From a virus (lineage: Duplodnaviria; Heunggongvirae; Uroviricota; Caudoviricetes), in the IMG/VR virus record IMGVR_UViG_2724679239_000006: a stretch of DNA of 33,401 bases, one strand, 5' to 3'. Shown in pieces: positions 9,695-31,657 of the stretch. The position numbers and the translations under genes are program-made. Position 1 is the stretch's first letter, and each line of letters begins with the position of its first letter. The notes under the pieces were generated by a model. That model saw only the letters and a list, made by a program, of their open reading frames with translations. It was not told the DNA's origin and searched no databases.

Positions 9695-9721
9695 GGCGAA
9701 GCAGCAGACAAGCGAAGCGCG

Positions 9722-13510: not shown

Positions 13511-13533
13511 TAAGACAAAGGAGCAAATTTTTT

Positions 13534-14586: not shown

Positions 14587-14595
14587 TCAACTCAC

Positions 14596-14614
14596 GGCGG
14601 GCATCATGCCCGCC
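14596..14614 (+). other. Stem-loop immediately downstream of the major capsid gene
   Basis: 8-bp GC-rich stem GGCGGGCA/TGCCCGCC with 3-nt loop, no U-tract; possible mRNA stabiliser or attenuator. Confidence 0.35.
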
Positions 14615-14631
14615 TGTAACGGAGAGAAAAA

Positions 14632-15429
14632 ATGATTACTCCTGCACAGCAACACTGGCAGAACGTGATGGCACAGCGCGCAGGCCGGGCGAATGAAGGC
14701 GTGGACCACGCCGCGCGTACCGCGCATGAAGAGGTGCTGTATCGTCTGCGTCTGGCACAGGCCCGGCTTAAGGGCGTACAGGCCAGAAGCGCGAAAGCCG
14801 CCATCAAAAAAGAGTTGTTACCGGACTTTTCCGGCTGGATTGAGGGAACGCTGGAGGCTGACGGCGGGCAGCAGGATGAAGTGATTGCCACGCTGATGGT
14901 GTGGGCGATTGACTGCGGCGATCTTCCGCTTGCGCTGCGTATTGGTGCGTATGTGGTCCGTCACAACCTCATCATGCCGGATAACTTTGGCCGTACTGCT
15001 GCCACAGTGCTGACCGAAGAAATCTGCAACCCGGTATTGACGCAGGCCGGGACGGATGCCGACGCGGATTTGTCCACCTTTATCGAACCACTGGACACAC
15101 TTTGGGAAATTGTCGCCAACCAGGATATGCCGGACGAAGTGCGCGCCAAATTATGCAAGGCGTGCGCCTTTGCCCGCCGTGGCCTGAGCGATGCGGACAG
15201 CATGGCCTCATCACTGAAGCTGCTGCGCGAAGCGATGCACCTGAACCCGAACGCAGGTGTGAAACGCGAGATTGCAACCCTTTCCCGCGCCCTGAAAAAA
15301 GCCGATTCCGCAGCCGCACCAGTTGCCAGCGCACAGCAGGCGCAGGACGAAAGCAGCAAAAGTAAAAAGACAACGCGGAAGCCTGCAACACGAAAAACCA
15401 CCGCGACGCAGAAGGCGAAGCGCGGTTAA
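14632..15429 (+). CDS. M: Terminase small/endonuclease subunit (gpM)
   Basis: 265 aa; position after N; RBS GGAGAG. Confidence 0.85.
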   Translation: MITPAQQHWQNVMAQRAGRANEGVDHAARTAHEEVLYRLRLAQARLKGVQARSAKAAIKKELLPDFSGWIEGTLEADGGQQDEVIATLMVWAIDCGDLPLALRIGAYVVRHNLIMPDNFGRTAATVLTEEICNPVLTQAGTDADADLSTFIEPLDTLWEIVANQDMPDEVRAKLCKACAFARRGLSDADSMASSLKLLREAMHLNPNAGVKREIATLSRALKKADSAAAPVASAQQAQDESSKSKKTTRKPATRKTTATQKAKRG

Positions 15430-15530
15430 CGACTGACCCCGTCAGCGGGCGGCGTGCGCGGTGTTCCGGTTTGACTCCGTGACCGTTTACACCACGCACC
15501 CACCGCCCGATTTTTTCAGGAGTGAACCCC

Positions 15531-16025
15531 ATGAGTATGGTTGCCAGAACCGAAACCCGCCCCGCAGAGGATGACATCACTGATACCGATGATGGCGATA
15601 CCCGTATTTCTGCGGGGGCATTCTGGCCGGATATTGTGCTGCGTGAGCTGCGTCTGGCGGTACGACTGCCGGGCCGCGTGACCACCTCCCGCCTGCTGCA
15701 TACCGCCACCGGGGCGGTGGCCCACGTTACCCGTGAGCTGGAAGCGTGGCAGCAGGAACAGCAGGCAGCCGGACACGAAACACTGGCCGATGTCCCGGCG
15801 CCATTAATTAACGGAGAAAGCGTCAATCTCTGGCACTGGCGCAATGCGGTTTATACCGCCACCCGTGCCCTGATTCTGGAGCGTTACCGCGATGCGGACA
15901 CAACGGATAAGGGCGAGCGCCGGGCAGATGCACTGGACGCACAGGCTGCGGACCTGTGGCGCGATGTGAGCTGGGCCATCTCTGACATTCTGGGAAGACC
16001 ACGAATGTTTGCGGAGCTGTGCTGA
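15531..16025 (+). CDS. L: Head completion/stabilisation protein (gpL)
   Basis: ATG at 15531 with RBS AGGAG; 164 aa. Confidence 0.85.
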   Translation: MSMVARTETRPAEDDITDTDDGDTRISAGAFWPDIVLRELRLAVRLPGRVTTSRLLHTATGAVAHVTRELEAWQQEQQAAGHETLADVPAPLINGESVNLWHWRNAVYTATRALILERYRDADTTDKGERRADALDAQAADLWRDVSWAISDILGRPRMFAELC

Positions 16026-16225
16026 TGAAAGTGAAGGCACTGGCAGGCGACACCGTGGATTCGCTCTGTTTCCGCTACTACGGCATGACGCAGGGCGTCA
16101 CCGAAAAGGTGCTGGATGCCAACCCAGGACTCTGTCAGCAGGTATTTCTGAACGCCGGGCAGGAAGTGGAGATGCCGGAGCCGGAGAAGAAGAAACGAGA
16201 AATGATTCAGTTGTGGGGAGAGTAG
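16025..16225 (+). CDS. X: Tail protein X (gpX)
   Basis: 66 aa; YYGMTQGVTEKVLDANPGL resembles the P2 gpX pattern; start overlaps the L stop. Confidence 0.8.
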   Translation: MKVKALAGDTVDSLCFRYYGMTQGVTEKVLDANPGLCQQVFLNAGQEVEMPEPEKKKREMIQLWGE

Positions 16226-16227
16226 CG

Positions 16228-16551
16228 GTGAGCACCATTCAAACAGGGATCACAGAGCAGGTTATTGCGTGGCTCCTTGACCACCTGCCAACGGTGTATG
16301 CAGTAGGCGCGGCGGTCAGCATTTCCGCGCTGATGAGTCTTTATGACGGACGAACACTGGTTCAGACCGTAACGGGATCGCTGGCGTGCGGCGTTCTTGC
16401 CATGGCCGTGGCCGGGTCGTTGCGCTTCTTCGGTTTTCCTGAAGATGCCGTGACGTTTATCGGCGCATCAATCGGTTTTATGGGGGCAGAAAAAGCACGC
16501 GACAAGGTTATTGCGGCCTTTAATCGCAGGGTGAAGGAGAAGGACGAATGA
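16228..16551 (+). CDS. Holin
   Basis: GTG start after the X stop; about 107 aa with three hydrophobic segments; located upstream of the endolysin. Confidence 0.55.
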   Translation: MSTIQTGITEQVIAWLLDHLPTVYAVGAAVSISALMSLYDGRTLVQTVTGSLACGVLAMAVAGSLRFFGFPEDAVTFIGASIGFMGAEKARDKVIAAFNRRVKEKDE

Positions 16552-16940
16552 GCAACACATTTAAATTCAGCAGCCGGAGCGAAAAGAATTTGCAGGGCGT
16601 AAATCCTGATCTGGTGAAAGTGACCCGACGGGCACTGGAAATCTCGGAAGTGGATTTTGGTATCACCGAAGGGTTGCGCAGCCGTTACCGCCAGAAGCAA
16701 CTGGTGGCCACGGGTAAGAGCCAGACCATGAACAGCCGCCACCTTACGGGGCATGCCGTGGATGTTGTGGCTTATATCGGCAGCCAGGTGTCATGGGAAT
16801 GGCCGCTGTACGAAAAAATCGCAGCAGCATTCAGACAGGCCAGCCGGGAACTGAATATTCCGGTGGAATGGGGCGGCGACTGGAAGACCCTGAAAGACGG
16901 ACCACATTTTCAGTTACCACACGGAGCCTATCCGGCATGA
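16548..16940 (+). CDS. Endolysin, zinc peptidase M15 family
   Basis: 130 aa; SRHLTGHAVDVV and WGGDWKTLKDGPHFQL are characteristic of M15/VanY-type peptidoglycan peptidases; ATGA overlap with the holin. Confidence 0.7.
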   Translation: MSNTFKFSSRSEKNLQGVNPDLVKVTRRALEISEVDFGITEGLRSRYRQKQLVATGKSQTMNSRHLTGHAVDVVAYIGSQVSWEWPLYEKIAAAFRQASRELNIPVEWGGDWKTLKDGPHFQLPHGAYPA

Positions 16941-17344
16941 AGCTCTGGCCCACGCTGGGTGTCGCTTTCCTTCTGATTGCCGCATGGGGAACATCCATGC
17001 GTCTGTCGTGGTCGCTGGGCCGGGAGAACGCCAGAAACGAAGCGCAGGCCAGCGCCCTGAAAAGCACCGTCGACACCCTGAATATCATCAGCACCGGGGT
17101 ACAGGATATGCAGCAGGTGCTGGCGCAACTCCGCGTGGAAAATCAACAGCGAAATCAGGACGGAGAGGCCAGACGTGAACAGCTACGCAACGATATTGCA
17201 AAAGATGAATGCGCCCACGCTTTGCCTGACGCTCGTTTTACTGACAGGTTGCGCAGGCACGCAGAACGCGCCACGGCCAGCGCCGTCAGTCCGGCTTATA
17301 CCGCAGACGCTGACCATACCGGTAACGCCTCCCCCCTTCCCTGA
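16937..17344 (+). CDS. lysB: i-spanin (LysB/Rz-like)
   Basis: ATG at 16937 overlapping the endolysin stop; N-terminal TM LWPTLGVAFLLIAAWG followed by a charged coiled-coil-like region. Confidence 0.6.
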   Translation: MKLWPTLGVAFLLIAAWGTSMRLSWSLGRENARNEAQASALKSTVDTLNIISTGVQDMQQVLAQLRVENQQRNQDGEARREQLRNDIAKDECAHALPDARFTDRLRRHAERATASAVSPAYTADADHTGNASPLP

Positions 17345-17495
17345 CACTCCCACATGGGGAAATCTCGGTATATGGGGCGACCGCCTTCTGGATGCACTGG
17401 AAACCTGTAACGCGGATAAACGGGCCATTGAATTACTGGAGCAGCGCAGACTGCAACGACTGAACAACGAGGACAACAGCCATGCTGAAAACTGA
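17175..17495 (+). CDS. lysC: o-spanin lipoprotein (LysC/Rz1-like), overlapping lysB in the +1 frame
   Basis: Lipobox LLTGCAG after a short signal sequence; proline-rich segment TIPVTPPPFPDTP; start is either GTG 17175 or ATG 17205. Confidence 0.6.
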   Translation: MNSYATILQKMNAPTLCLTLVLLTGCAGTQNAPRPAPSVRLIPQTLTIPVTPPPFPDTPTWGNLGIWGDRLLDALETCNADKRAIELLEQRRLQRLNNEDNSHAEN

Positions 17496-17949
17496 TTCCC
17501 TGCGTGAAGCCATGACCCGTTCATGTCGATGGTGTCACGCCAACCCGGAGAAATTCACCATTTTCGTGGAGAGCGGCAACATTGAAACGACCGGAGAAAC
17601 TCCCTCGTTTGCTTACCGCTATCAGATGGTGATGTTTGTCATGGATTACGCCGGGGAGCTGGACGACCTGACTCTGCCGCTGCTGGCGTGGTTGTCGGAG
17701 AATCAGCCGCAGTTGTTGCTCAACCCTGAGCGTAATCAGGACATCAAATTTTCTGCCGTTATTAATGACGATGACAGCGCCGATATCCTGTTTACACTGC
17801 CCCTGCGGGAGCGCGTTCGCGTCACGCGCAGCAGTCAGGGCACACCACAGGCAGAACACCTGCCGGAGCCAAAACCCCGCCTGCCATCTTCCGAAGGCGA
17901 CTGGTCACATGTATTCCAGGATGTGACGTGGGGCGAAAGCGATGGATAA
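17482..17949 (+). CDS. R: Tail completion protein (gpR)
   Basis: 155 aa, size and position as P2 R. Confidence 0.8.
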   Translation: MLKTDSLREAMTRSCRWCHANPEKFTIFVESGNIETTGETPSFAYRYQMVMFVMDYAGELDDLTLPLLAWLSENQPQLLLNPERNQDIKFSAVINDDDSADILFTLPLRERVRVTRSSQGTPQAEHLPEPKPRLPSSEGDWSHVFQDVTWGESDG

Positions 17950-18577
17950 GGCATTCACCCGCGCGGATGAAACCTTCGAGGCTATCCGCGACAGCCTGAA
18001 TCAGCAGGCCATCAATAACATCGCCAGAAAGCTGGCACAGGATTTACGCCGCGCCCAGCAGGCACGTATCCGGTCACAGAAAGCGCCGGACGGGACCGCA
18101 TGGACACCACGCAGACGCCGCGTAACCCGGATACAGGAGCGCATTCGCTTTATCTGGAATAACGAAACACGCACGCTGAAAAACTGGCATCACGACACAG
18201 GGAAATACGGGCGAACCATTACCGGGTGGGATGAGGATAAAAACAATATCCGCACGTTTTACCGGGATGACATCGACCGTTTTCTGGAAATACGCACCCG
18301 ACGTATCAACCAGGACAGCACAAAGCACGTCCCCATGTTCGTAAAACTGCGCACCGCCCGTTACCTGAAAGCCCGCGCGGATGCCTCCGGTGTGACAGTG
18401 GGTTACAGCGGCGTGGCCGCACGTATTGCACGCGTTCATCAGTTCGGTGAACGCGATCAGGTTGCGCCGGGTATTTTCACCAATTATCCGGTACGTGAGC
18501 TGCTGGGTATCAGTCAGGCGGATGAGCGCCTGATTTATAACACGGTGCTGGGCCGGATTGCGGAGGCAGTACAGTGA
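17942..18577 (+). CDS. S: Tail completion/virion morphogenesis protein (gpS-like)
   Basis: 211 aa; position between R and V. Confidence 0.75.
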   Translation: MDKAFTRADETFEAIRDSLNQQAINNIARKLAQDLRRAQQARIRSQKAPDGTAWTPRRRRVTRIQERIRFIWNNETRTLKNWHHDTGKYGRTITGWDEDKNNIRTFYRDDIDRFLEIRTRRINQDSTKHVPMFVKLRTARYLKARADASGVTVGYSGVAARIARVHQFGERDQVAPGIFTNYPVRELLGISQADERLIYNTVLGRIAEAVQ

Positions 18578-19155
18578 ACGCAGAACTTATGAGACTGCTG
18601 AGCAATATCATCCGCACCGGGATCATCTCTGAAATTGATGAGAAATCCTGGTGCGTGCGGGTCCTCAGCGGCGGACTGGAAACAGGCTGGTTGCGCTGGA
18701 ACACCACGCGCGCGGGAGCCTTCAATGTGTGGCTGCCGCCATCAGTGGGCGAACAGGTGGCAATTGCCTGCATCGGCGGCAACCCGGAAACAGCCATGAT
18801 AATTGGCAGCCTGTGGAGCGATGACATTCCGGCCCCCGGAAAAAGCCTGAAAGAAATCGTGGTCAGCGCGCCGGATGGCGCGGTGTTCTGCTACGACGCG
18901 GACGCAGGCGCACTGAGCGCCAGCGGCGTGCAAACGGCCACCCTGCAGGCATCCGTCAGCGTGAAACTGGACACACCTGTCGTGGAGTGCACAAACCTAC
19001 TGAAAACAGCCGAGATTGACGTCACAAAAGGGGGAAAGATGAGCGGCAATATCACGCACAGCGGCGGCAATTTCACCTCAAACGGCATCACTGTGCATAC
19101 GCATAAACACGGTGGCGTTAAAGGTGGCAGCGATTCGACAGGAGGACCGCAGTGA
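18574..19155 (+). CDS. V: Baseplate spike/assembly protein (gpV)
   Basis: 193 aa; ATGA overlap with S; position as in P2. Confidence 0.8.
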   Translation: MNAELMRLLSNIIRTGIISEIDEKSWCVRVLSGGLETGWLRWNTTRAGAFNVWLPPSVGEQVAIACIGGNPETAMIIGSLWSDDIPAPGKSLKEIVVSAPDGAVFCYDADAGALSASGVQTATLQASVSVKLDTPVVECTNLLKTAEIDVTKGGKMSGNITHSGGNFTSNGITVHTHKHGGVKGGSDSTGGPQ

Positions 19156-19502
19156 CAACCCGCTACACAGGAATGAACCCGGACGGGACGGGAAACCTGA
19201 ACGATATGGAGCACCTGAAACAGTCAGTCAGGGACATCCTGACCACCCCGCTGGCAAGCCGGGTTATGCGACGGGAATATGGCAGTCTTGTCCCTGATTT
19301 GATTGACGAACCCATGAATAACACCACGCGTCTGCAATGCATGAGCGCTGCTGTGATTGCACTGACACGATGGGAGCCACGCATTGCCCTGAGCGCCATT
19401 GATGTTGTCTGGAAGGCGGGAGGCCGCGCCGGGGTGACACTATCGGGTACTGTCATTCAGACCATGCAGAATGTTGAATTAACCATCACGCTGAGGGAGT
19501 AA
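19152..19502 (+). CDS. W: Baseplate protein (gpW, GPW/gp25 family)
   Basis: 116 aa; GTG start with RBS GGAGGA; MTTRYTGMN...SRVMRREYGS matches the P2 gpW pattern. Confidence 0.85.
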   Translation: MTTRYTGMNPDGTGNLNDMEHLKQSVRDILTTPLASRVMRREYGSLVPDLIDEPMNNTTRLQCMSAAVIALTRWEPRIALSAIDVVWKAGGRAGVTLSGTVIQTMQNVELTITLRE

Positions 19503-19505
19503 ATC

Positions 19506-20402
19506 ATGCCTGCCGTTGACCTTTCACAGTTACCGGAACCCGCCATCATCGCGGAGCCTGATTTTGAGGCAATTCTGGCTGACACAAAGGCCATGATGAT
19601 TGCGGCTTATCCCGCCGAACAGCGTGAAGCCGTTTCCGCCGCGCTGGAGCTGGAATCAGAACCCCTGAACGTTATCGCTCAAACCATGTCGTTTCGTGAA
19701 ATGCTGTTACGCCAGCGGGTTAACGAGGGCGCACGCGCCTGCATGTTAAGCCACGGTTCAGGGACAAACCTGGACAACCTCGCGGGCAATATGAACACAA
19801 AGCGCCTGGTTATCACTCCGGCAACGGATACCACCGACGCGGTGATGGAGAGCGACACCTCGCTGAGACTGCGGGCGCAGCGGGCGTACGACGGCCTGAG
19901 TGTTGCTGGCCCGTCAGGTGCATACGAGTATTTTGCCCGCAGCGCCAGCGGTCTGGTGCGTGATGCGCGGGCTATCAGTCCGTCTCCGGCAAATGTGACG
20001 GTTTCCATCCTGTCCACTGAAGGCGACGGCACGGCAACGGAGGCGTTGCTTAATACCGTTCGCGCCGTTCTGAATGCAGAGGATACCCGCCCGGTGGCAG
20101 ACCGCCTGACCGTACAGAGCGCCAGAATCGTGACATGGCGGCTGAATGCAAAACTGTACTTTTACCCCGGCCCGGAATCCGAACCTATTCTGGCCGCTGC
20201 GGAATCGTCGTTCAGGAAGTGGCTGTCTGAGCAGGGACTTATCGGTCAGGACGTGGCGCTGTCAGCCATTGCTGCCGCACTTCATGTGCACGGCGTGCAA
20301 CGCGTGGAGATAATCGAACCCACCCAGAATATAGCCATCAGCGACATACAGGCGGCGCGTTGTGAGTCATTCACCATCAGCGAAGGTGGGCGCAATGAGT
20401 AA
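19506..20402 (+). CDS. J: Baseplate protein (gpJ)
   Basis: 298 aa; position after W. Confidence 0.85.
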   Translation: MPAVDLSQLPEPAIIAEPDFEAILADTKAMMIAAYPAEQREAVSAALELESEPLNVIAQTMSFREMLLRQRVNEGARACMLSHGSGTNLDNLAGNMNTKRLVITPATDTTDAVMESDTSLRLRAQRAYDGLSVAGPSGAYEYFARSASGLVRDARAISPSPANVTVSILSTEGDGTATEALLNTVRAVLNAEDTRPVADRLTVQSARIVTWRLNAKLYFYPGPESEPILAAAESSFRKWLSEQGLIGQDVALSAIAAALHVHGVQRVEIIEPTQNIAISDIQAARCESFTISEGGRNE

Positions 20403-20927: not shown

Positions 20928-23156
20928 ATGAGTACCACAACACGAAAATTTAAAACCGTTATCACTGATACGGGTGCAAAAAAATTAGCACAGGCAGCCG
21001 CACCAGATGGCAAACCCGTCCGCCTGACACATATGGCCGTGGGTGACGGCGGCGGTACTTTACCCACGCCAGACAGTAAGCAGACCCGTCTTGTGCATGA
21101 GGTGTGGCGACATACCGTTAATCGCGTCTTCCTGGACGCAACACATCAGAACCGCATTATTGCGGAGCTGGTTATTCCTCCAGAAACGGGCGGATTCTGG
21201 ATCCGGGAAATTGGTGTGTTTGATGAGCACGGCGATTTAATCGCGGTGGGAAATACTGCCGAAAGTTACAAGCCAGCCGTTGCCGAAGGGTCCGGGCGTG
21301 CGCAAACATTTCGCACCATCCTGACCGTATCCAGCACGGCCACCGTGGCGCTTACCGTGGATAACACCATGGTGATGGCCACGGTGGATTACGTGGATGA
21401 CAAACTAAAAGAGCATGAACAGTCACGACGTCACCCGGATGCCTCGCTGACCGCAAAAGGCTTTACTCAGTTAAGCAGTGCGACCAACAGCACGTCTGAA
21501 GCACTGGCCGCAACGCCGAAAGCGGTAAAGGCTGCATATGACCTTGCTAACAGGAAATATACCGCACAGGATGCCACCACAGAGCAAAAAGGCCTTGTCC
21601 AGCTCAGTAGCGCCACTAACAGCGTGTCTGAAATGATGGCGGCAACGCCGAAAGCGGTAAAGGCCGCCTATGACCTTGCTAACGGGAAATATACTGCACA
21701 GGACGCCACCACAGCGCGAAAAGGCCTTGTCCAGCTCAGTAGTGCAACCAACAGCCCGTCTGAAACGCTGGCTGCGACGCCAAAAGCTGTTAAGGCGGTA
21801 ATGGATGAAACGAACAAGAAAGCGCCGCTGTCGAGTCCGGCACTCACCGGAACGCCAACCGCACCAACTGCGCCAAAGGGTACTAACAATACTCAGATAG
21901 CAAACACGGCGTTCGTTATGGCCGCGATTGCCGCACTTGTAGACTCATCACCTGACGCACTGAATACGCTGAACGAGCTGGCTGCGGCATTGGGCAATGA
22001 CCCGAACTTTGCGACTACTATGACCAACGCGCTTGCGGGCAAGCAGCCGAAAGACGCCACCCTGACGGCGCTGGCCGGGCTTGCTACTGCGGCAGACAGG
22101 TTTCCGTATTTTACAGGGAATGACACCGCCAGCCTGGCAACTCTGACAAAAGTCGGGCGGGATATTCTGGCTAAAGCGACCGTTGCCGCCGTTATCGAAT
22201 ACCTCGGTTTGCAGGAAACGGTAAATCAGGCCGCTGGCGCATTGCAGAAAGACCAGAACGGCGCAGATATTCCAAACAAAGATAAATTTACGCAAACAAT
22301 AGGTGCTTGCCGCTCTTTTCATGGTTCTATTAGCACAGGTGCAGGAAACTGGACGACGGCGCAATTTATTGAATGGCTGGAATCTCAGTGGGCCTTCAAT
22401 CATCCATACTGGCTGTGTAAATGCTCATGGTCATACGGCAATAATAAAATTATTACTGACACCGGATGTGGACTTATTCACCTTGCGGGTTGCGTTATTG
22501 AAGTTATGGGCAATAAAGGCGCCATGACCATTCGTATAACCACACCGAGTACCTCTAGCAGTGGTGGCACCACTAATGCGCAATTTATATATATTAACCA
22601 CGGTTCAGAGTATTTACCTGGCTGGCGACGTGACTACAACACGAAAAATCAGCAGGCCGCTTTTGCTTTAGGGCAAACAGGAAGCACTGTCGGAAATGAT
22701 AAAGCTGTTGGCTGGAACTGGAATAGCGGGGTATATAACGCAAATATTGGTGGCGCATCGACATTAATCCTCCACTTCAATATGAACGCGGGTAGCTGCC
22801 CTGCTGTACAGTTCCGCGTAAATTATAAGAACGGTGGTATTTATTATCGTTCAGCGCGTGATGGTTATGGCTTCGAGGCTGACTGGTCAGAGTTTTACAC
22901 CACAACCCGAAAACCTTCAGCAGCAGATGTTGGGGCATATACTAAAGCGGAATGTAATTCACAATTTATTACAGGTATTCGATTAGGTACAAAATCATCA
23001 GCGCAAACATGGAATGGTCCTGGCTGGGGCGATAAATCTGGTTACGTTGTTACAGGTTCCGTTAACTCAAACAAAGATGAACTTATTGATACAACACAGG
23101 CAAGGCCAGTGCAATATTGTATCAATGGCACCTGGTATAATGCGGGAAGTATTTAA
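20928..23156 (+). CDS. H: Tail fibre protein (gpH) in current orientation; C-terminal 310 aa encoded inside the invertible segment
   Basis: 742 aa; three tandem 44-aa fibre repeats; C-terminal motif QYCINGTWYN; crossover site inside the ORF at 22201..22225. Confidence 0.9.
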   Translation: MSTTTRKFKTVITDTGAKKLAQAAAPDGKPVRLTHMAVGDGGGTLPTPDSKQTRLVHEVWRHTVNRVFLDATHQNRIIAELVIPPETGGFWIREIGVFDEHGDLIAVGNTAESYKPAVAEGSGRAQTFRTILTVSSTATVALTVDNTMVMATVDYVDDKLKEHEQSRRHPDASLTAKGFTQLSSATNSTSEALAATPKAVKAAYDLANRKYTAQDATTEQKGLVQLSSATNSVSEMMAATPKAVKAAYDLANGKYTAQDATTARKGLVQLSSATNSPSETLAATPKAVKAVMDETNKKAPLSSPALTGTPTAPTAPKGTNNTQIANTAFVMAAIAALVDSSPDALNTLNELAAALGNDPNFATTMTNALAGKQPKDATLTALAGLATAADRFPYFTGNDTASLATLTKVGRDILAKATVAAVIEYLGLQETVNQAAGALQKDQNGADIPNKDKFTQTIGACRSFHGSISTGAGNWTTAQFIEWLESQWAFNHPYWLCKCSWSYGNNKIITDTGCGLIHLAGCVIEVMGNKGAMTIRITTPSTSSSGGTTNAQFIYINHGSEYLPGWRRDYNTKNQQAAFALGQTGSTVGNDKAVGWNWNSGVYNANIGGASTLILHFNMNAGSCPAVQFRVNYKNGGIYYRSARDGYGFEADWSEFYTTTRKPSAADVGAYTKAECNSQFITGIRLGTKSSAQTWNGPGWGDKSGYVVTGSVNSNKDELIDTTQARPVQYCINGTWYNAGSI
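21456..21810 (+). repeat. Three tandem 132-bp repeats (third partial) inside the tail fibre gene
   Basis: Repeating peptide KG(F/L)(T/V)QLSSATNS.SE..AATPKAVKAAYDLAN.KYTAQDATT read three times. Confidence 0.6.
22201..22225 (+). other. Invertase crossover site (left inverted repeat, gix/cix-like)
   Basis: ACCTCGGTTTGCAGGAAACGGTAAA; its exact reverse complement occurs at 25218..25242. Confidence 0.65.
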
Positions 23157-23158
23157 TT

Positions 23159-23692
23159 ATGATGCATTTAAAAAATATTAAAGCAGGAAACCCCAAAACC
23201 GTAGAACAATATAAATTAACACGACAATTTGGCGTTGTCTGGTTGTATTCTGATGACGATAAAAACTGGTATGAGGAACAGAAAAACTTTCAGGAAGATA
23301 CAATAAAATTTGCTTACACTGCCGATGGAATCATTGTGGCTGTAGATAAGGATGTATCGACAATTAATCCCGAAGGTTTAAGCGTTGTTGAGGTTCCTGA
23401 TATTACAGCCAATAGGCGGGTCGATATTTCTGGTAACTGGATGTTCAAAGATGGCGCAGTGATAAAGCGGGAATATACCGAAGAAGAACAGAGACAACAG
23501 GCGGAAAATGAGAAGCAAAACCTGTTACAACTCGTCAGGGATAAAACTCAGCTATGGGATTCTCAGCTACGACTTGGAATTATTTCTGCTGAGAATAAAC
23601 AAAAATTGACCGAGTGGCTGCTCTACGCGCAGAAAGTAGAGTCTACGGATACCTCCGTCCTGCCAGTCACGTTCCCCGAACAACCAGAATGA
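23159..23692 (+). CDS. G: Tail fibre assembly chaperone (gpG)
   Basis: 177 aa; N-terminus [21 protein letters not shown]; directly after H. Confidence 0.85.
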   Translation: MMHLKNIKAGNPKTVEQYKLTRQFGVVWLYSDDDKNWYEEQKNFQEDTIKFAYTADGIIVAVDKDVSTINPEGLSVVEVPDITANRRVDISGNWMFKDGAVIKREYTEEEQRQQAENEKQNLLQLVRDKTQLWDSQLRLGIISAENKQKLTEWLLYAQKVESTDTSVLPVTFPEQPE

Positions 23693-23695
23693 GAG

Positions 23696-23720
23696 AAGGC
23701 CCGTTCGGGCCTTATTTTTT
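23696..23720 (+). terminator. Hairpin terminator between convergent chaperone genes
   Basis: AAGGCCC-GTTC-GGGCCTT followed by a T-run. Confidence 0.5.
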
Positions 23721-24255
23721 ATTCAGGCTTTTGTGGCCATTCAGGATTTGCCGTATCCACGCGGCTGAGCAGAACGCTGTAGCGTTCCCAGCCATCCAGC
23801 CGTGTACGTTCCTCATCTGTTGCCAGATTCATCCTGACGGCACGTTCCAGCAGCCGGATGACTGATTCAGCTTCGGAAAGCAAAGCTGCTTTTTGTGATT
23901 CAGCCTGCTGTTGTAATTCATCTTCTGTATAGACTCTTTTAATTACAGCACCATCCTTAATCATCCAGTTGCCGGAAATATCAGCGCGTCGGTTTACCGT
24001 AATATTGGGTAACTCAATAACACTCATTCCCTCTGGATTAATCAGGGATGCGTCTTTCTCTATGCAGCAAATAATACCCTCCTGGTTATATGCCACTTTT
24101 AACGTGTCTGGCTGGAAGTTTTTTTGTTCCTCATACCAGTTCTTACCTTCTTCCGACCATAACCAGACAACATCAAATTCTTTTGTAAGTTGATACTGTT
24201 CGATAGTTTTTGGATTTCCTGCTTTAATATTTTTTAAATGCTGCATATTAAGCAC
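23719..24255 (-). CDS. Alternative tail fibre assembly chaperone (G-prime), inverted orientation
   Basis: 178 aa; clearly paralogous to gpG ([21 protein letters not shown] versus [21 protein letters not shown]). Confidence 0.85.
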
Positions 24256-25217
24256 GTCCTACATTGTACCACTGACCATTAATATATTTCTGAACAGGCG
24301 CATAGACAGGCCACTCCCAGTCGTCATCAAAGTTACCACCTGTAAGAACACACCCCGCAGGGAGTGTTCCACCTTCGCCACCCCATTTTATTCCGCTCTG
24401 GTTAGCTCCCATGCGAACGTCACGCACATAGCGGGAATCAAAATTTCCATAATTTCCGGGAATAATTTGTGAACCACAAAGCCAGTTCCCGTTATTGTCC
24501 ATATACGCCTGACCGTCAGTACCATTGGCTGTCCTTGAGTTATTAATCATGTAGATGCCAAATTGCTTGTTCCCCAGTCCACCTATCATGAACTTGCGGT
24601 CAGCGTGATTCTGGCGAAGCAACGCCTGAGCGCTATCAGTGTTAACTATATTTTTCCCAAAGATAGCGTTGTTATCGCGCATCTGAATCCACATACCATT
24701 ACTGCTGTTAATAGCAAAACGGTCTGAAAGCGTCTCCCCTGAAACATTAAGGCCACGCCCCATCGAAACAGCGCCAGTAGCGTTATTAATCCATAATGGC
24801 CTTAATCCGTTATAAGTCCCCATGTTGTCACCGGAGTTTGTCAACATGAAGTATGTGTTTGAACCATCATTACGAATAAAGAATCCGTAATTACCATAAG
24901 CAATACGAAGGCCGTTTGCTGATTTTGATATGACTTCGCCATTTACAATGGCATTAACAAGAATATTTAGCGCATCCCATTTCAGCGTCATCAGGTCTTT
25001 TGTTGTTGTGCTTTGTTTGCTTCTCCATTTGAAATATTCATTGCCGTTATCTCCCGTTTCAAACCACATGAATGAATCAGTGTCACCATCGGCATCATTT
25101 TTAAATCCAATCTTCGCCCAGTCAGAATTCCGAATCCAGGCAAGGATTGAGTCGTATTCAAAAGTAAGCCCACCGGACAAGGTATCGCCTGTCTTTTGGA
25201 CGGCGTTACCAGCCTTG
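24248..25217 (-). CDS. Alternative tail fibre C-terminal segment (H-prime), promoterless and startless until inversion
   Basis: Open frame runs through the right crossover site (track ORF 24248..25276); contains [10 protein letters not shown] matching [10 protein letters not shown] at the H crossover; C-terminal motif [10 protein letters not shown]. Confidence 0.8.
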
Positions 25218-25242
25218 TTTACCGTTTCCTGCAAACCGAGGT
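25218..25242 (-). other. Invertase crossover site (right inverted repeat)
   Basis: Exact reverse complement of 22201..22225. Confidence 0.65.
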
Positions 25243-25305
25243 TTTTGATAATGGTCGTTTCTGGCCCACATGGCATGATTTGTGCTTTTGAGCGGGAGAT
25301 TCAAT

Positions 25306-25905
25306 GTGCTGATTGGCTATGTACGCGTGTCAACAAATGACCAGAACACGGATTTGCAACGCAATGCGCTCAATAGCGCAGGATGTGAACTGATTTTTGA
25401 AGATAAAATCAGCGGAACAAAGTCAGCCAGACCGGGATTGAAAAAACTGCTCAGAACACTGTCAGAAGGCGATACGCTCGTTGTCTGGAAACTGGACAGG
25501 CTGGGCAGAAGCATGAAACACCTGATCACACTGATTGAGGAATTACGGGAAAAAGGTGTCAATTTTCGTAGTCTGACGGACAGCATTGACACATCAACAC
25601 CCATGGGGCGCTTCTTTTTTCACGTCATGGGGGCTTTAGCTGAAATGGAACGCGAACTGATAGTTGAACGTACCAGAGCAGGACTGGCAGCAGCCCGCGC
25701 ACAGGGGCGCATTGGTGGGCGTCGTCCGAAACTGACAAAAGAGCAACATGAGCAAATAGCAAGGCTGATTAAAAACGGCCATGACAGAAAACAACTGGCC
25801 ATAATTTACGGCGTTGGTATATCGACGATTTATCGTTACCACCCCGTGGGAGAATCAACCGGGACAACTGAGAAGACCAGAGGAAACAAAAAACCGCTAA
25901 TCTGA
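25306..25905 (+). CDS. Serine DNA invertase, Gin/Cin/Pin/Hin family
   Basis: GTG start giving MLIGYVRVSTNDQNTDLQRNAL; catalytic serine motif, GDTLVVWKLDRLGRSMKHL, and C-terminal HTH; near-identical in pattern to Gin/Pin as remembered. Confidence 0.9.
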   Translation: MLIGYVRVSTNDQNTDLQRNALNSAGCELIFEDKISGTKSARPGLKKLLRTLSEGDTLVVWKLDRLGRSMKHLITLIEELREKGVNFRSLTDSIDTSTPMGRFFFHVMGALAEMERELIVERTRAGLAAARAQGRIGGRRPKLTKEQHEQIARLIKNGHDRKQLAIIYGVGISTIYRYHPVGESTGTTEKTRGNKKPLI

Positions 25906-25917
25906 TCATTAGCGGTT
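25892..25917. terminator. Bidirectional hairpin terminator between the invertase and gpU
   Basis: 10-bp stem AACCGCTAAT/ATTAGCGGTT with 6-nt loop, flanked by A-run and T-run; overlaps the invertase stop codon. Confidence 0.5.
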
Positions 25918-25927
25918 TTGCGTTAAA

Positions 25928-26422
25928 TCAAAACAGCCCTTTAACTGAGCTGACTGCATTGTTAAGGGATGATGTTACCTTATCTTTAAGGCCGGACAGC
26001 ATATCGCTGAACGATGAGGATTGCAGGCGTTCCCGCAAATCCTCATCACAGCGTTCAAGGGTCAGGGAAAACTCTATCTTTTTCGCTTTCCCGTAGCGAT
26101 CCAGTTCAGAGCGGGTCGTGCTCGTTTCGGTCAGAACATACATGCCGTAAATCTGCCCGACGCCATCAATCAGAGGCCACGGGCGCCCCATATACGCCTG
26201 CGTGGTCAGCAGCGACAGCGACACTTCGCCGCCTGTAATCTCAGGATAAAGCACGCCGGAAAGAACGATGCGATCATCACCTGCACCGATATACTGCCAG
26301 CTTGCGGAACGGTTAACGCGCTCGTTTTTCACATGTCGCCAGCTTTTGTTTTGCTGTAACTGCTGATGCGGCAACGTGCGCAGCTCAAAAACAAACATGC
26401 CGTAGATCATCATCATGGCCAT
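25928..26422 (-). CDS. U: Tail protein U (gpU)
   Basis: 164 aa; pattern WRH...VVLSG..YPE..GG..SL...GK.WPLIDG.G.IYGMYV matches P2 gpU as remembered. Confidence 0.8.
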   Translation of the reverse strand: MAMMMIYGMFVFELRTLPHQQLQQNKSWRHVKNERVNRSASWQYIGAGDDRIVLSGVLYPEITGGEVSLSLLTTQAYMGRPWPLIDGVGQIYGMYVLTETSTTRSELDRYGKAKKIEFSLTLERCDEDLRERLQSSSFSDMLSGLKDKVTSSLNNAVSSVKGLF

Positions 26423-26428
26423 GACTCC

Positions 26429-29266
26429 TCAATCTTTATCGTAAAAACTGCCACGCCCGGCACGGGTACGCCGCTCCAGTTCTGCCCTGACCATTTCGCC
26501 GACCAGTTTCGCCAGTTCGCGGGGATTCTGCGTAACAACGTTATGCAGATGGACATGAATTTCACCACCAAATCCGGGGGTCGCAGCCTCCCGGCTGCGG
26601 GAAGATGCGGAAACGGGCGCAACTGGCGCACGTGCGGCCTCCACGACCGGACGGGAGCTTGCTGCAACAACAGGGGGCAGCGCCGGAGATAACGGAGCCG
26701 GGGGCGCGGGAGTGATATTGATTGCAGGAAGAGCCTTGTTGCTCTGCGCAACCTTTCGCTCCTGCCACTCCCCACGAACAGCAAGCGCACGGGGCAGGTT
26801 CTTAAAGACAATATCACCGGGGCCGATACGCTTTTTCGTCTCATCAACCAGCTTGCCCGTATTATCTGCAATTTTGCTGAGCCTGCGTAGCGTGCCAGTG
26901 TTGTTGTCCGTGAGCGGCTTATTGTCTTTAGGCTTATCGCCTCCGGTCCCTGTTTCCGCAGACTTCGGCGGATTGATTTTTGCCAGGTCCCCCTGAAGCA
27001 AAGCAACCTTGTCCTGAAGAATGGCCGCACGCTGCGCGTCTTCGATTTTCTTTCTCGCCCTTTCCGCTTCATCTGGAAGGACACCAAGTTTTTCAAGTAT
27101 CCATGCCAGCGTATCCAGCAGCATTTTGGCAGGCGTCAGGACAAGCTGTAACGCACCGCCAAGAACGTTGCCGAATACCTCGCCAGCACTGGTGCATTTA
27201 TCCAGCGTTTCCTTGCTGGATTCCATCGGTGACAGCAGCGATGTAAACCAGTTAAAGACCTGAATCACGCCATCACGAACCAGTTCGAAAACAGGGCCAA
27301 ACCGTTCAAAGGTTTCGCGTAACGGGGCCAGCCGCTCCATAATCCCGCTGAACACCCCGGCAAAAAATGCCCTGATTGGGTCCCAGTATTTCCAGATGAG
27401 AACGGCAGCTCCGGCAAGCGCAGCTACGATAAGACCGACCGGGCTGAACAACGCCCCGATAGCACCTCCCAGTAAAGAGACGGAACCCGTCACCATTCCC
27501 CATAGTGCTGGCAGGACCCTGACAGCATTCATTGAACCGGTCAGGAGGGAAAAGCCAAGACGCAGTTTTGCCAGCGGGCCAGCAAGCACACCAATAGCCA
27601 GCGACAACGAGCCAACCGTTGCAGTCATTGCCAGCAACGCACCGCCTGCTATCAGTAGCTGGCGCGTCAGTACCGGATGGGCCTGCGCCAGCGCCGTCAC
27701 CCTTGATACCACCCGCGTGAGCCACTGCGTGACAGAACGCAGCGGACCGTCAATCAGATCTGCAATGCGGATGCGCAACCCTTCCCATGCACTGTCGAGT
27801 GATTTCAGATCGCCGTCAAGGTTGTTGGCCATAACCTTTGCTGTGCGTTCAGCCTCACCGCGCGCGCCTTCAAGTTCTTTTCTCAGTTTAGGTAAGGAAC
27901 CGTCACCTGCCGCATCAACGAGGGCCATAAATGACGTGAAGGCCTCTTCTCCGGCTATGTCCTTAAAGAACGATACCCGGTCAACTTCCCCGTATTTGCG
28001 GGTGGCTTTATAAAGGTCGGCCAGCACATCCTCCATCGGGCGCATTTTGCCGTTCGCATCAGAGACAGCCACACCAAGCTCTTTCAGCGCCTCTGCCGCC
28101 GCCTTTGGCGGTGATGCCAGACGAGCAAGGCTGGCACGCATTGCCGTCCCGGCATCACTCCCTCTGATACCCATATTCGCCAGCACGCCCGCCATCGCTG
28201 CGGCCTGCTCCAGCGATATTCCCAGCTTACCCGCCACCGGACCTGCATATTTCATGGTTTCGCCCAGCGCGCGAAGGTCGGTGTTAGTACGGGTAAACGC
28301 CGCAGTAAGTGTGTCGCCGACCCGATCCATCTGGTCAGCAGAGAGGCCGAACTGCGTCAGGATATTTGAGCCAATATCCGCCGTCTCGCCAAGGTCCATA
28401 CCGCCAGCCGTTGCCATGCTCAGCACGCCGGGAAGCGCAGCCTGAATGGCTTCTGGTGTGAAGCCAGCCATAGCAAGAAATGCCTGCCCACTGGCGGCAT
28501 CACTCGCAGTAAACTGCGTTTCAGAGCCGAGCTTTAGCGCCTGCTCACGCAGCGCCTTAAACTGCGGGCTGTTCTGGTCAATTCGCGTCAGCGCCTGCAC
28601 ACGGGACATCTCTTTCCCGAATCCGATAGCGGGCTGCAAAAAACGCCCGGCAGCATAGCCGCCAGCCGCTGCCGCACCAGTTGCCAGCGCACCACCCGTT
28701 TTCAGTTTTCCCGCTGTTTCCTGCGCGCGTGAATACTGCTCACGCGCCCGCGTTACACGCGCAAGCGCCTGTCGTTCGAGTTCAAGCTGGTTGTTGTACT
28801 GTTCGGTGCGTCTGATGGCCTGCTGGATGGTGTTATCGCTGCCTGTCAGGGAAATACCGTGGCGTTTAAGCTCTCCGCCAAGCTCCCGCATTTTCTGAAT
28901 TTCCCGTGTGCGCGATTCATTCAGGCGTTCAAGCCGGGTGCTTAACTGCTGCATCAGCTTTTGTTGTTTTTCGCTGAGCACCGTACCCGTGCGTTGTAAC
29001 TGATGAAGGGCGTTAAGCTGGCGTCGTGCTTTCACGATGCCAGCATCCGCTTTACTGACAGCATCGCGGGCGCGCTCAAATGAACGCGCCTGACGCTCGA
29101 GATTTTTGATCGCCCCCTGCGTTCGCTGGATGGAGTCACCAAGCTGTCCCATCAGGCGGCGGGCGTTTTCGGCTGGCCGGGTCAGCCTGTCAACAGCACT
29201 GAAGGCGACCCGAATGTCAAGAGTCTTCATCGTCTGCATTCCCACTGCGAAGTGCCGCCCGCTCAC
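26429..29266 (-). CDS. T: Tail tape measure protein (gpT)
   Basis: 945-aa ORF, helical/alanine-glycine-rich with hydrophobic core segments; start uncertain (possible later starts at 29239 or 29230, after the E' stop). Confidence 0.85.
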   Translation of the reverse strand: MSGRHFAVGMQTMKTLDIRVAFSAVDRLTRPAENARRLMGQLGDSIQRTQGAIKNLERQARSFERARDAVSKADAGIVKARRQLNALHQLQRTGTVLSEKQQKLMQQLSTRLERLNESRTREIQKMRELGGELKRHGISLTGSDNTIQQAIRRTEQYNNQLELERQALARVTRAREQYSRAQETAGKLKTGGALATGAAAAGGYAAGRFLQPAIGFGKEMSRVQALTRIDQNSPQFKALREQALKLGSETQFTASDAASGQAFLAMAGFTPEAIQAALPGVLSMATAGGMDLGETADIGSNILTQFGLSADQMDRVGDTLTAAFTRTNTDLRALGETMKYAGPVAGKLGISLEQAAAMAGVLANMGIRGSDAGTAMRASLARLASPPKAAAEALKELGVAVSDANGKMRPMEDVLADLYKATRKYGEVDRVSFFKDIAGEEAFTSFMALVDAAGDGSLPKLRKELEGARGEAERTAKVMANNLDGDLKSLDSAWEGLRIRIADLIDGPLRSVTQWLTRVVSRVTALAQAHPVLTRQLLIAGGALLAMTATVGSLSLAIGVLAGPLAKLRLGFSLLTGSMNAVRVLPALWGMVTGSVSLLGGAIGALFSPVGLIVAALAGAAVLIWKYWDPIRAFFAGVFSGIMERLAPLRETFERFGPVFELVRDGVIQVFNWFTSLLSPMESSKETLDKCTSAGEVFGNVLGGALQLVLTPAKMLLDTLAWILEKLGVLPDEAERARKKIEDAQRAAILQDKVALLQGDLAKINPPKSAETGTGGDKPKDNKPLTDNNTGTLRRLSKIADNTGKLVDETKKRIGPGDIVFKNLPRALAVRGEWQERKVAQSNKALPAINITPAPPAPLSPALPPVVAASSRPVVEAARAPVAPVSASSRSREAATPGFGGEIHVHLHNVVTQNPRELAKLVGEMVRAELERRTRAGRGSFYDKD

Positions 29267-29749
29267 GCCAGCTAACCACTTCGCCGGGCGTCATCATGAA
29301 GATTTCGGCGGGCGACCAGTTAAAAATAACGGCAATATCTGCCACAAAGTCTTCTATGTGCTCAAAGCACACAACCGTGATCAGGCTTCCGTCGCCTGTT
29401 CGTTCTTCCCGCCAGAGTCCGCACCGCTCAAAAAATTTACGGCAACCACACATAACTGAATAAAGTCACGGGATGCCATTTTTTTGATCGTCACTTCATC
29501 CAGTCGCGGTGATGTCACGCGTGACAACAGCGTAAACATGGATTCCGCTTTCAGACTCAGCACATCAGACAGCGACAGACCACGCAGGGATCCAGCCTGC
29601 TCAATAGCCCCGGTAATCTCCACATACGTGATTTTTTCGTCGCCTCGCTCAATTGGCTGGGTAAGTTTTACGCCGCGCTCGCCGGTTTCTTTCGCAGTAT
29701 CAGCAACCACCACAGCGTTTTCAGTATCGGTATTTTTCGTCTCTTTCAT
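29217..29749 (-). CDS. gpE+E' fusion chaperone made by programmed -1 ribosomal frameshift
   Basis: Slippery site T_TTT_TTG at plus-strand coordinates 29429..29435 (minus-strand mRNA); the -1 frame is open from there to a stop at 29217. Confidence 0.6.
29381..29749 (-). CDS. E: Tail assembly chaperone (gpE)
   Basis: 122 aa; PIERGD...LRG pattern as in P2 E; contains the slippery heptamer TTTTTTG near its 3' end. Confidence 0.8.
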   Translation of the reverse strand: MKETKNTDTENAVVVADTAKETGERGVKLTQPIERGDEKITYVEITGAIEQAGSLRGLSLSDVLSLKAESMFTLLSRVTSPRLDEVTIKKMASRDFIQLCVVAVNFLSGADSGGKNEQATEA

Positions 29750-29803
29750 CAGAAAACTCCTTTCAGTCAGGGGCGACGCACTGCGCCGCCTGCATATTAC
29801 ATA

Positions 29804-30316
29804 TCAGCCGAGCCCGAGCGCGGAACGGATGCGGTCGGGTACAATGTCCTTGCCATCCTTCCGGTAGATGTGGTTCACCAGGTCAATTTCCCACACCGGA
29901 CGATCGTTAATACTCAGCTTGTAGTAGGTGTTTTTGACAGCGTAAGTGTGTGACGTGGCTTCGCCCTGTTTGGCCTCCCCCATATCAATTTCCGTCACAC
30001 GCCCGCGCATCTCGATTTCATACAGGTCGCTTTCTGCATCGGTGTAGTATTCACCCGCAAAACGCAGCAGCGTGCCGTCCATTGTTCCGCCATATTTAAG
30101 GAACAGCGCACGAACGGCGCCCCCCATGACAAAACTCGCATCAAGCGCGGAATCGTCCAGGCCGAGGTCGATACTCACCGCTCCCAGCATGCCACCACCA
30201 CGATAGCTGTCGGTTTTACGCGTCAGTTTAGGCGGGGTGACAGACGTCACCTTACCCACTTCATTTTCACCATCCACAAACAGCGTAAAAAAACGAAGAT
30301 GTTTTGGTACGGCCAT
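29804..30316 (-). CDS. FII: Tail tube protein (gpFII)
   Basis: 170 aa; SVTPPKLTRKTDSYRGGGM..DLGLDD pattern matches P2 FII. Confidence 0.9.
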   Translation of the reverse strand: MAVPKHLRFFTLFVDGENEVGKVTSVTPPKLTRKTDSYRGGGMLGAVSIDLGLDDSALDASFVMGGAVRALFLKYGGTMDGTLLRFAGEYYTDAESDLYEIEMRGRVTEIDMGEAKQGEATSHTYAVKNTYYKLSINDRPVWEIDLVNHIYRKDGKDIVPDRIRSALGLG

Positions 30317-31500
30317 TAAGCACCTCCAAGCACTGCAAATGCAGGACCAAAGAACTCATCAGTGAACGCCTGGTAAAGCTCCATATCTTCCAGCGGAGGA
30401 ACGGGCGTATATTTATAGCGAATACGCACGCGCCCCTGTCGTAATTCTGTGGTGCTGTTATCCACGATGTCATACCAGCACGATGCGCCAATCAGTTTCC
30501 CGGCAGTAACCAGCGAATCCAGTTTTGCCCTGATGGCACTGATGACGTCCTTCACGTTCGCAGGCGTCAGTGGACTGTCGATGGTTTCAAACTGCGCTTC
30601 CGCAACCGTGTCAGCCAGCACCTGTGCGGTTCGGGTATACACCTCAAAAATGTAGGCGTTCGTTTCCGGCGTACGGTTACCCCAGAAGCGGAACCCGTTG
30701 CGGCGAATGATGGTTGTGATTTCTTTGTTGTTGAGGCTGTTGGCATCGCTGTCTTCGGCCTGCAACGACCAGAACACATGCCTGGACATCCCCAGCACAT
30801 TTTTGACCGGAACGTTGGACAGCGATTTGTGCCAGCCCTGCTCATGGTCAATGTACGCACGAAGGCCGCACGCATAGGCTGGCGCGGGGAAAACCTCATT
30901 CTCGCCACTTTTCGGGTTGTAAGCGATGAAGTCCGGCCACAGGAGCATCAGCTCGCGTTCGTTGAATTTTTCACGGTATGCAATGGCTTCAGCCATCGTG
31001 TTACAGCCATGACAGGAGGCATACACAAACGCGCGCAGTTTACCTGCAATCACGCACAGGGATTTTGTCACCGCCTCCGTGTCCAGCCCCGGCGCGGCCA
31101 GAATACGCGGACGGTATCCGATGCTTTCATCCTGCTCTGCAACAAGCAGCGCATACATCCCCGTATAGCTGCCGTCGGATTCAGAACCACCGATAACCAG
31201 TTGATCCTGTGTTTTTCCGTCTTCTTCTTTGTGTTCAGCCACGCGAACGACGATCACCTTTGTGCTCACCTGGTCTGCAATGGGTTTCAGCGCACGGTAC
31301 AGCGTCCCCGTTGTCCCGCATTTTCCCAGCACGTCATTGACGCGGGTCACTAATGCAGGCTTGTTCAGCGGGAACAGCTTCGCGTCCGCATCGTCCGCCG
31401 TTGCCACGATACCGATAACGCTGGAATCAACGTCGTTAATTGCTGTTACCAGGTCGGTACTTTCCGTAACGCGGGCGCCATGAAAGCGAGTTTCACTCAT
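30316..31500 (-). CDS. FI: Tail sheath protein (gpFI)
   Basis: 394 aa; FPLNKP, PRILAAPGLDT, RELMLLWPDF, GFRFWGNRT and YTPVPPLE blocks match P2 FI. Confidence 0.9.
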   Translation of the reverse strand: MSETRFHGARVTESTDLVTAINDVDSSVIGIVATADDADAKLFPLNKPALVTRVNDVLGKCGTTGTLYRALKPIADQVSTKVIVVRVAEHKEEDGKTQDQLVIGGSESDGSYTGMYALLVAEQDESIGYRPRILAAPGLDTEAVTKSLCVIAGKLRAFVYASCHGCNTMAEAIAYREKFNERELMLLWPDFIAYNPKSGENEVFPAPAYACGLRAYIDHEQGWHKSLSNVPVKNVLGMSRHVFWSLQAEDSDANSLNNKEITTIIRRNGFRFWGNRTPETNAYIFEVYTRTAQVLADTVAEAQFETIDSPLTPANVKDVISAIRAKLDSLVTAGKLIGASCWYDIVDNSTTELRQGRVRIRYKYTPVPPLEDMELYQAFTDEFFGPAFAVLGGA

Positions 31501-31657
31501 AGTTCCAGCCCCTTGTATCCGTTAAATGATTCGGCAACAATCATCACCCACCACGCGCGTAATCTCATCCCTGCGCCGTTCTTGCCGCCCGGCGACAACA
31601 AAAAGCAGTAACCCCGCCCGCACACACATGCGACCATGCTGCACAGGGAGGGAGCCG
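31501..31657. promoter_or_regulatory. Divergent intergenic region between FI (leftward) and D (rightward), with 19-bp palindrome ATGATT-N7-AATCAT at 31526..31544
   Basis: Only non-coding interval available to drive both the tail operon and D in this arrangement; palindrome seen directly. Confidence 0.3.

Follow-up and report, generated by a model that had tools for sequence, protein, structure and literature searches.

We analysed a 33,401-nt stretch of DNA (IMG/VR record IMGVR_UViG_2724679239_000006; hereafter, the window), centring on its tail fibre gene H, whose distal part lies in a segment bounded by inverted repeats, and on the adjoining gene for a serine DNA invertase. By its sequence, the window belongs to the P88-like (P2-related, Xuanwuvirus) prophages, with Escherichia albertii as its host according to the species names of identical proteins; over positions 1-20000, it shares 95.4% identity with Escherichia phage 520873 and 92-94% with P88, 503458 and Citrobacter phage phiSM. 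Its genes run in the order integrase (1-1002), gpA replication, ParM/StbB-like partition, capsid, lysis, baseplate, fibre and invertase, followed by a sheath-tube-tape-measure-gpU block on the opposite strand and then by gpD. The Pfam neighbours of the fibre and invertase module are baseplate J, tail protein I and gpU. A literature search returned no description specific to this E. albertii prophage.

Layout of the invertible fibre segment

The locus consists of a constant fibre part, two opposed cassettes between crossover sites, and the invertase gene with a candidate enhancer, arranged as follows.

20928..22200, plus strand: constant N-terminal part of H, corresponding to Mu/P1 Sc and lying outside the inverting segment; Pfam Phage_tail_fib and three Phage_fiber_2
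22192..22217, plus strand: left 26-bp crossover site, TTATCGAATACC TC GGTTTGCAGGAA, with its TC core at 22204-22205; matches Mu gix
22201..22225: left copy of the 25-bp inverted repeat, encoding LGLQETVN
22226..23156, plus strand: variable C-terminus now joined to H (Mu S' type, G(-) form); weak Pfam gp37_C match
23159..23692, plus strand: assembly chaperone of the expressed C-terminus (Mu/P1 U' type), 177 aa; Caudo_TAP E=2.6e-34
23719..24246, minus strand: second chaperone, in silent orientation (Mu/P1 U type); Caudo_TAP E=7e-34
24248..25217, minus strand: alternative C-terminus, silent (Mu S / P1 Sv type, G(+) form); Pfam Gp34_trimer
25218..25242: right copy of the 25-bp inverted repeat
25226..25251, minus strand: right 26-bp crossover site, TTATCAAAAACC TC GGTTTGCAGGAA on the minus strand, with its core at 25238-25239
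25243..25276, minus strand: short leader outside the segment, beginning at ATG 25276, MPCGPETTIIKN; keeps the silent copy in an open frame
25306..25905, plus strand: serine DNA invertase of the Gin/Cin/Pin/Hin group, 199 aa, GTG start; Pfam Resolvase and HTH_7
25324..25395, plus strand: candidate Fis-bound recombinational enhancer, at the equivalent of the annotated enhancer of P1 cin (gene nt 19-90)
25890..25919: terminator-like hairpin between the convergent invertase and gpU genes

The plus strand has the 25-bp repeat ACCTCGGTTTGCAGGAAACGGTAAA at 22201-22225, and the minus strand has it at 25242-25218. The two copies are identical throughout and diverge directly beyond either end, and a repeat finder places it within a looser 61-nt inverted repeat of 79% identity (22189-22249 and 25194-25254). 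Overlapping the repeat copies are the two 26-bp sites, which lie in inverted orientation and each consist of imperfect 12-bp half-sites flanking a 2-bp core. Both gix sites of Mu read TTATCCAAAACC TC GGTTTACAGGAA; the window sites deviate from this at 2-4 of 26 positions, the right-hand one at 2 of 26, and given this match they are gix-type crossover sites with cores at 22204-22205 and 25238-25239. Searching the 33.4-kb window with a 20-mer of the crossover site (up to three mismatches) returned no place beyond these two, and 0 of 100 dinucleotide-preserving shuffles of the window contained a match at that threshold. The sole other occurrence of ACC-NN-GGTTT in the window, at 10593, is without half-sites, and half-site matches with two mismatches are isolated. 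A shufflon-like design with further crossover sites was considered and set aside, as none was found in the window search.

H (20928-23156) encodes 742 aa, of which 309 follow the peptide LGLQETVN, and this peptide is encoded by both repeat copies in the fibre reading frame. The N-terminus carries a P2-type tail-collar domain and three Phage_fiber_2 repeats (Pfam), and the constant part shares 94% identity with the fibre of Escherichia phage 520873 (residues 1-430). Beyond the repeat, the two cassettes have their counterparts in the G segment of Mu and the C segment of P1. At 81% identity, H residues 422-742 match the S' fragment of Mu, and the chaperone that follows matches U' of Mu and of P1 at the same level; the window is thus oriented like Mu G(-), with the S'-type tip attached. 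On the opposite strand, the alternative C-terminus (identity of 84% with residues 160-504 of Mu S and of 85% with P1 Sv) belongs to a 342-aa open reading frame (ORF) at 24248-25276. The open frame of its chaperone covers 23719-24255 (178 aa), with a likely start at ATG 24246 that gives 175 aa, the form found in public protein sets; this protein shares 76% of its residues with Mu U and 78% with P1 U. The leader at 25243-25276 has a counterpart in Mu, the fragment ORF Mup52, in the corresponding position. For the silent copy, no promoter or ribosome-binding site was evident in a promoter scan and in sequence inspection near the invertase.

The constant part of H also contains three tandem 132-nt repeats (21455-21850; 100, 82 and 61% identity), every one of them coding for a Phage_fiber_2 motif. 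In P1, the annotation records a 132-bp repeated element, a1, in the constant part of S as well.

The invertase most likely starts at GTG 25306 (MLIGYVRVS..., as in Mu gin) and not at the open-frame start at 25282; the resulting 199-aa protein is present in public protein sets, from which the 207-aa form is absent. Besides HTH_7, it contains a Pfam Resolvase domain (E=3e-52), and over 180 residues it shares 76% identity with Gin and 78% with Cin; identity with the invertase of phage 520873 is 83.5%. Against the Gin crystal structures 4m6f and 3uj3, residues 1-182 give E values of about 1e-89 (4e-89 for 4m6f), whereas the match to gamma-delta resolvase is much weaker (E=1e-32). Residue numbers in Hin are offset by one from those in Gin. 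At the N-terminus, MLIGYVRVSTNDQ, Ser9 is aligned with Ser9 of Gin; the KLDRLGRS motif is kept, and the position of Gin M114 holds the wild-type Met. Ser9 is the linking nucleophile of Gin, replaced in the 3uj3 crystal by S9A, and M114V is a Fis-independent mutant (PMC3575834). In the sequence ..EQIARLI.. of the window invertase, Q, R and L of DNA-binding helix 1 align with the same Gin residues, and the basic residues K46, K47 and R50 are conserved; McLean et al. reported Hin Gln151, Arg154 and Leu155, together with basic residues at 47, 48 and 51, as unique to Fis/enhancer-dependent invertases (PMC3798978).

It is plausible that a recombinational enhancer, which in this group of invertases acts in cis and has two Fis sites, lies inside the 5' part of the invertase gene. 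The candidate stretch shares 58/72 nt with P1 and 54/72 with Mu. Synonymous codon identity within it (10/21 and 11/21) is not clearly higher than elsewhere in the gene (32/80 and 28/84), and the stretch also codes for the best-conserved region of the protein. Mu, P1 and the window have G-N13-C 15-mers in common at gene positions 22/71 (49 bp apart) and 46/94 (48 bp apart), and these could not be matched to known Fis sites.

Several of these elements had been proposed in an earlier reading of the same DNA, referred to here as the original prediction. The perfect 25-bp inverted repeats that it placed at 22201..22225 and 25218..25242 proved exact to the base, and the peptide LGLQETVN, which it assigned to both crossover copies, is seen in H and in the opposite ORF. 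Its two opposed cassettes of fibre C-terminus and chaperone between the repeats agree with the ORFs, the Pfam domains and the homology to Mu and P1, and the Gin/Pin-like serine invertase that it described beside the segment was likewise recovered, with the end of the ORF at 25905, as it had said.

Segment orientation in related prophages

Inversion was modelled in silico by replacing positions 22226-25217 with their reverse complement. The product is an uninterrupted, in-frame H of 755 aa, followed directly by the U-type chaperone gene; the fibre reads LGLQETVN across the site in both forms, with 742 aa as found and 755 aa when inverted. As relatives of the window prophage, we took contigs encoding an identical invertase or an identical U'-type chaperone (designated L004 to L023 below).

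Both orientations occur among these natural relatives. Contig L004 (the same as L015; GCA_054077945.1, 350 kb) encodes the identical invertase beside a segment flipped exactly at the repeats, with a gene order of 755-aa fibre, 175-aa chaperone and reversed 177-aa chaperone. In BLAST alignments, the block corresponding to 22189-25251 is reversed while the flanks are collinear, and an ungapped comparison over 12,600 nt gave 8 mismatches to the inverted model versus 2,137 to the window as it stands. Between the 755-aa fibre encoded by L004 and the predicted fusion there are 3 residue differences. L005 and L008 (the same as the L016 and L017 contigs) are in the orientation of the window, to which they are 99.96-99.98% identical. 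Two further contigs carry short remnants of the flipped form beside the invertase-side repeat: L010 (GCA_003569025.1) opens with 72 nt of the reversed S'-type C-terminus, and L011 (SRR36487304) opens with five bases of the flipped orientation. Among complete E. coli genomes, homologous modules of about 83% identity match the window orientation in 52 genomes and the flipped one in 59.

The original prediction had held that inversion would fuse the constant part of H to the alternative C-terminus, and this is what the model yields, as an in-frame 755-aa product, and what exists as a real gene in L004. As for the outcome that it had named as speaking against a switch, a single orientation together with a dead invertase, the opposite was found: a near-identical prophage is flipped, and Ser9 and the other residues checked in the invertase are kept.

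Contig boundaries bear on the orientation within single cultures. Of the 15 contigs that carry the chaperone, 8 are only 2-5 kb long, and the segment also occurs as stand-alone contigs ending at the repeats: L019, of 3,042 nt, is exactly 22201-25242, and L020, L021 and L022 measure 3,041, 3,029 and 2,990 nt. Logan assemblies use a k-mer of 31. As the 25-bp repeat is shorter than the assembly k-mers, a contig that stops at both repeats indicates that reads supported both junctions, and these repeat-bounded contigs would thus reflect mixed orientations within the sequenced cultures. Draft assemblies often break at the 25-bp repeat. One scaffold, L018 (GCA_001514885.1), appeared to have lost 67 bp including the right repeat (25177-25243) and was considered as a locked variant; it was rejected because the N at position 7019, in the junction, marks a scaffold gap and not a deletion.

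A different rearrangement is present in L006 (Logan SRR35649717) and L007 (GCA_052910735.1), which contain the same prophage with 22206-24497 (2,292 bp) deleted, and which may be samples of the same clone. At the junction, within 5160-5230 of these contigs, lies a TC common to the left core (22204-22205) and to 24498-24499, on the same strand, in the silent cassette; the deletion truncates the fibre near residue 426. Its geometry is that expected for a deletion by a serine invertase between sites in direct orientation, and the flanks of the second deletion site resemble gix poorly. The quasi-sites of Cin share the central dinucleotide with cix. The deletion may be a natural record of invertase-mediated recombination at a quasi-site.

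Other silent cassettes are found in related prophages, in L009 (4651-5915), L014 (5642-6906), L023 (1-400 and 1357-2690) and L012 (1-17), and these cassette-swapped prophages carry an identical invertase or chaperone. In L023, a P1-cix-like site, ACCTCGGTTTACGAGAGC, takes the place of the gix-like one at one segment end. Since cassettes and sites differ beside an identical invertase or chaperone, they are being exchanged among E. albertii prophages. In addition, E. coli KSC9 (NZ_CP018323.1, 17396-22401 and 4840017-4845022), WS1933D and MSI001 each have two homologous switch modules, one per orientation. With two modules in one E. coli genome, the invertases of a single cell could act on several prophages.

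Interpretation as a probable host-range switch

We read the locus, with a probability of about 0.93, as a working Mu G-type host-range switch in the tail fibre operon of a P88-like E. albertii prophage. In the proposed mechanism, the invertase (25306-25905) would bind both 26-bp gix-like sites, cut at the central TC/GA dinucleotides (22204-22205 and 25238-25239) and rotate the segment of ~3.03 kb between them. Read-through from the late operon upstream would then reach just one cassette, whichever is turned towards the constant part of H. As the window stands, this would give a Mu S'-type tip, folded by the U'-type chaperone, and in the inverted orientation a Mu S-type tip with the U-type chaperone. 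With one cassette read per orientation, a lysogen population would release two kinds of virion with different receptor specificity. Catalysis by the window invertase is what its conserved residues lead us to expect, and the reaction would presumably depend on host Fis and on the enhancer inside the invertase gene. Within the Gin/Cin/Pin/Hin group, inversion requires Fis and supercoiled DNA, and the enzymes are interchangeable. A difference in host range between the orientations is likewise suggested by the 81-85% identity of the two tips to Mu S' and S and by the role of the fibre in P88, in which the last 30 residues determine host range, inversion being unmentioned in that report (PMC5285337).

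Some observations weigh against this interpretation. Both orientations were seen between isolates, in relatives rather than in the source strain, and a promoter scan returned no sigma-70-like promoter around the invertase; low expression from a GTG start also holds for gin. The receptor specificities are extrapolated from proteins 81-85% identical, and at synonymous sites the candidate enhancer did not stand apart from coding constraint. Furthermore, an exact look-up in a collection of 15 billion proteins returned neither the predicted 755-aa fusion nor, on the silent side, the predicted 329-aa flipped ORF; given that the fibre of the flipped relative differs at 3 residues, absence from an exact look-up carries no weight.

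The first two of these points, the reliance on relatives instead of reads from the source strain and the lack of a promoter-like site upstream of the invertase in the scan, are also what could be expected of a frozen relic of a Mu/P1-like ancestor that no longer inverts here and whose silent cassette is decaying. Against such decay, the cassettes, the chaperones and the invertase are all intact frames, the catalytic residues are conserved, the flipped prophage differs at so few positions (8 in 12,600 nt), and the repeat-bounded contigs in several assemblies point to mixtures, all of which makes a relic highly improbable. It could also be argued that the segment does flip, but through RecA-dependent homologous recombination over the 25-61-bp inverted repeat and not through the invertase. 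Rare homologous exchange could take place over a repeat of this length, and since the products of RecA and the invertase would be identical, sequence alone cannot separate the two routes. Nevertheless, we give RecA very little credence: 25 bp of perfect identity is near the minimum for RecA-dependent exchange, the repeat is a gix-type site adjoining a Gin-type enzyme, and the junction in L006 and L007 coincides with the 2-bp core, the cleavage position of serine invertases.

The orientation differences might instead be artefacts of assembly at the inverted repeat, given that most relatives are short-read drafts and that the apparent deletion in L018 proved to be a scaffold gap. Such an origin is barely credible, however, because the 25-bp repeat is shorter than common assembler k-mers, so that a sample with a single orientation should assemble through it; in addition, the contigs L005, L008 and L004 (98-350 kb) run through the locus, and the complete E. 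coli genomes show both orientations. A last alternative concerns purpose rather than mechanism, namely, that the switch mainly serves the lysogen, in which proteins derived from the fibre in one orientation would shield receptors and give protection from other phages. PinQ and StfE2 of prophage e14 offer a precedent (PMC12529663), and the silent copy has an ATG-initiated open frame that begins outside the segment (25276). On the other hand, the prophage looks complete from integrase to gpD, with all P2-type head and tail genes, the cassettes lie in the late fibre operon, and no signals for expression of the silent copy are evident; moreover, a role in the lysogen would add to, and not replace, the role in the virion. 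By analogy with e14, a switch that acts in the lysogen besides diversifying virions is conceivable, though quite improbable. In either orientation, ATG 25276 is followed by one receptor-binding C-terminus; were this expressed, a free fibre fragment could result, mask receptors on the cell surface and alter sensitivity to other phages.

Taking the locus as a working host-range switch, P88-like prophages of E. albertii, an emerging enteric pathogen, would carry a live fibre switch, a result that matters little beyond annotation. Host-range and phage-typing work with P88-like phages should record the orientation of the segment, and draft assemblies of such strains can be expected to break, or to take a random orientation, at this locus. 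The 3.7-kb module, comprising segment, sites, spacer and invertase, is common to Mu-like, P1-like and P2-like phages, which are unrelated types, at about 83% DNA identity.

The surrounding prophage and related switches

Outside the switch, ParM-like (StbA_N/ParM) and StbB-like plasmid partition genes lie at 7912-9189, as in P88-like phages. The genes for gpU, the tape measure, E/E', the tube and the sheath occupy 25928-31500 on the minus strand and are followed by a plus-strand block at 31526-32767. The order of the tail genes in P2 differs from this opposite-strand arrangement, while the part of phage 520873 that was seen has the same layout, with a reversed tail protein and tape measure after the invertase. 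The invertase gene stands where the baseplate and fibre block converges with the opposite-strand tail block. The hairpin at this convergence (25890-25919) has a 12-bp stem with T runs on both sides and is probably a two-way terminator.

In a megablast comparison, the segment with its sites (22192-25251) aligns with the G segment of Mu (82.8%) and the C segment of P1 (83.7%), as well as with D108, D6, P7 and SfMu. A close parallel in layout is Mu G, in which the constant fibre part, site, Sv-U, U'-Sv', site and invertase follow one another in the same order, with the invertase on the fibre strand and with the spacer from site to invertase and the GTG start both conserved. Mu itself is transposable, whereas the window phage is a P2-related temperate phage, and the ~170-residue Sc of Mu is replaced here by a 425-residue N-terminus of the P2 H type. 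The C segments of P1 and P7 share homologous Sv, U and U' (78-85% identical) and an invertase 78% identical (Cin), and the enhancer of P1 is annotated inside the 5' end of cin. They differ in that the P1 cix sites are shorter and deviate outside the ACC..GGTTT core, the P1 C segment is 4.2 kb long, with longer variable parts, and P1 cin lies on the other side, beside Sv'.

Among P88-like phages (P88, 520873, 503458 and phiSM), the backbone is 92-95% identical to the window over 1-20000, and the layout of fibre, chaperone, reversed chaperone, reversed fibre fragment, invertase and reversed tail genes is shared. In RefSeq, the equivalents in 520873 are annotated as two tail fibre proteins, two chaperones and a DNA invertase. 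The P88-like modules are 80-83% identical to that of the window in DNA. The cassettes differ, with identity between the silent C-termini of 520873 and the window at only 47%, and the window differs from these phages in having E. albertii as host.

Comparable switches are known from prophages and from phage-derived particles. In P2-like prophages of E. coli E2348/69, coexisting orientations of the fibre segment were demonstrated by whole-genome sequencing and polymerase chain reaction, an invertase and inverted repeats giving alternative fibre C-termini; one locus there has two variants, as in the window, while another has three repeats and four variants, compared with the two sites found here (PMC4272514). 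The P segment of e14, with Pin, also combines an invertase with inverted repeats to give alternative fibre C-termini, although e14 is a defective prophage, and a systematic survey lists Mu-type fibre inversions in prophages (PMC9881135). In carotovoricin Er and other tailocins, the fibre tip of a P2-type contractile tail is switched by an invertase (PMC4272514, PMC13195805); these are tail-only bacteriocins, whereas the window also has integrase, replication, capsid and lysis genes. By its design and its sequences, the module is a member of the known Mu G / P1 C / e14 P family. The likeness to the Mu G and P1 C design put forward in the original prediction extends to every element that can be tested in sequence, namely the inverted gix-like sites, the constant fibre N-terminus beyond them, the two opposed cassettes and the adjoining Gin/Cin-type invertase, each of them being present and homologous, not merely analogous, to its counterpart in those phages.

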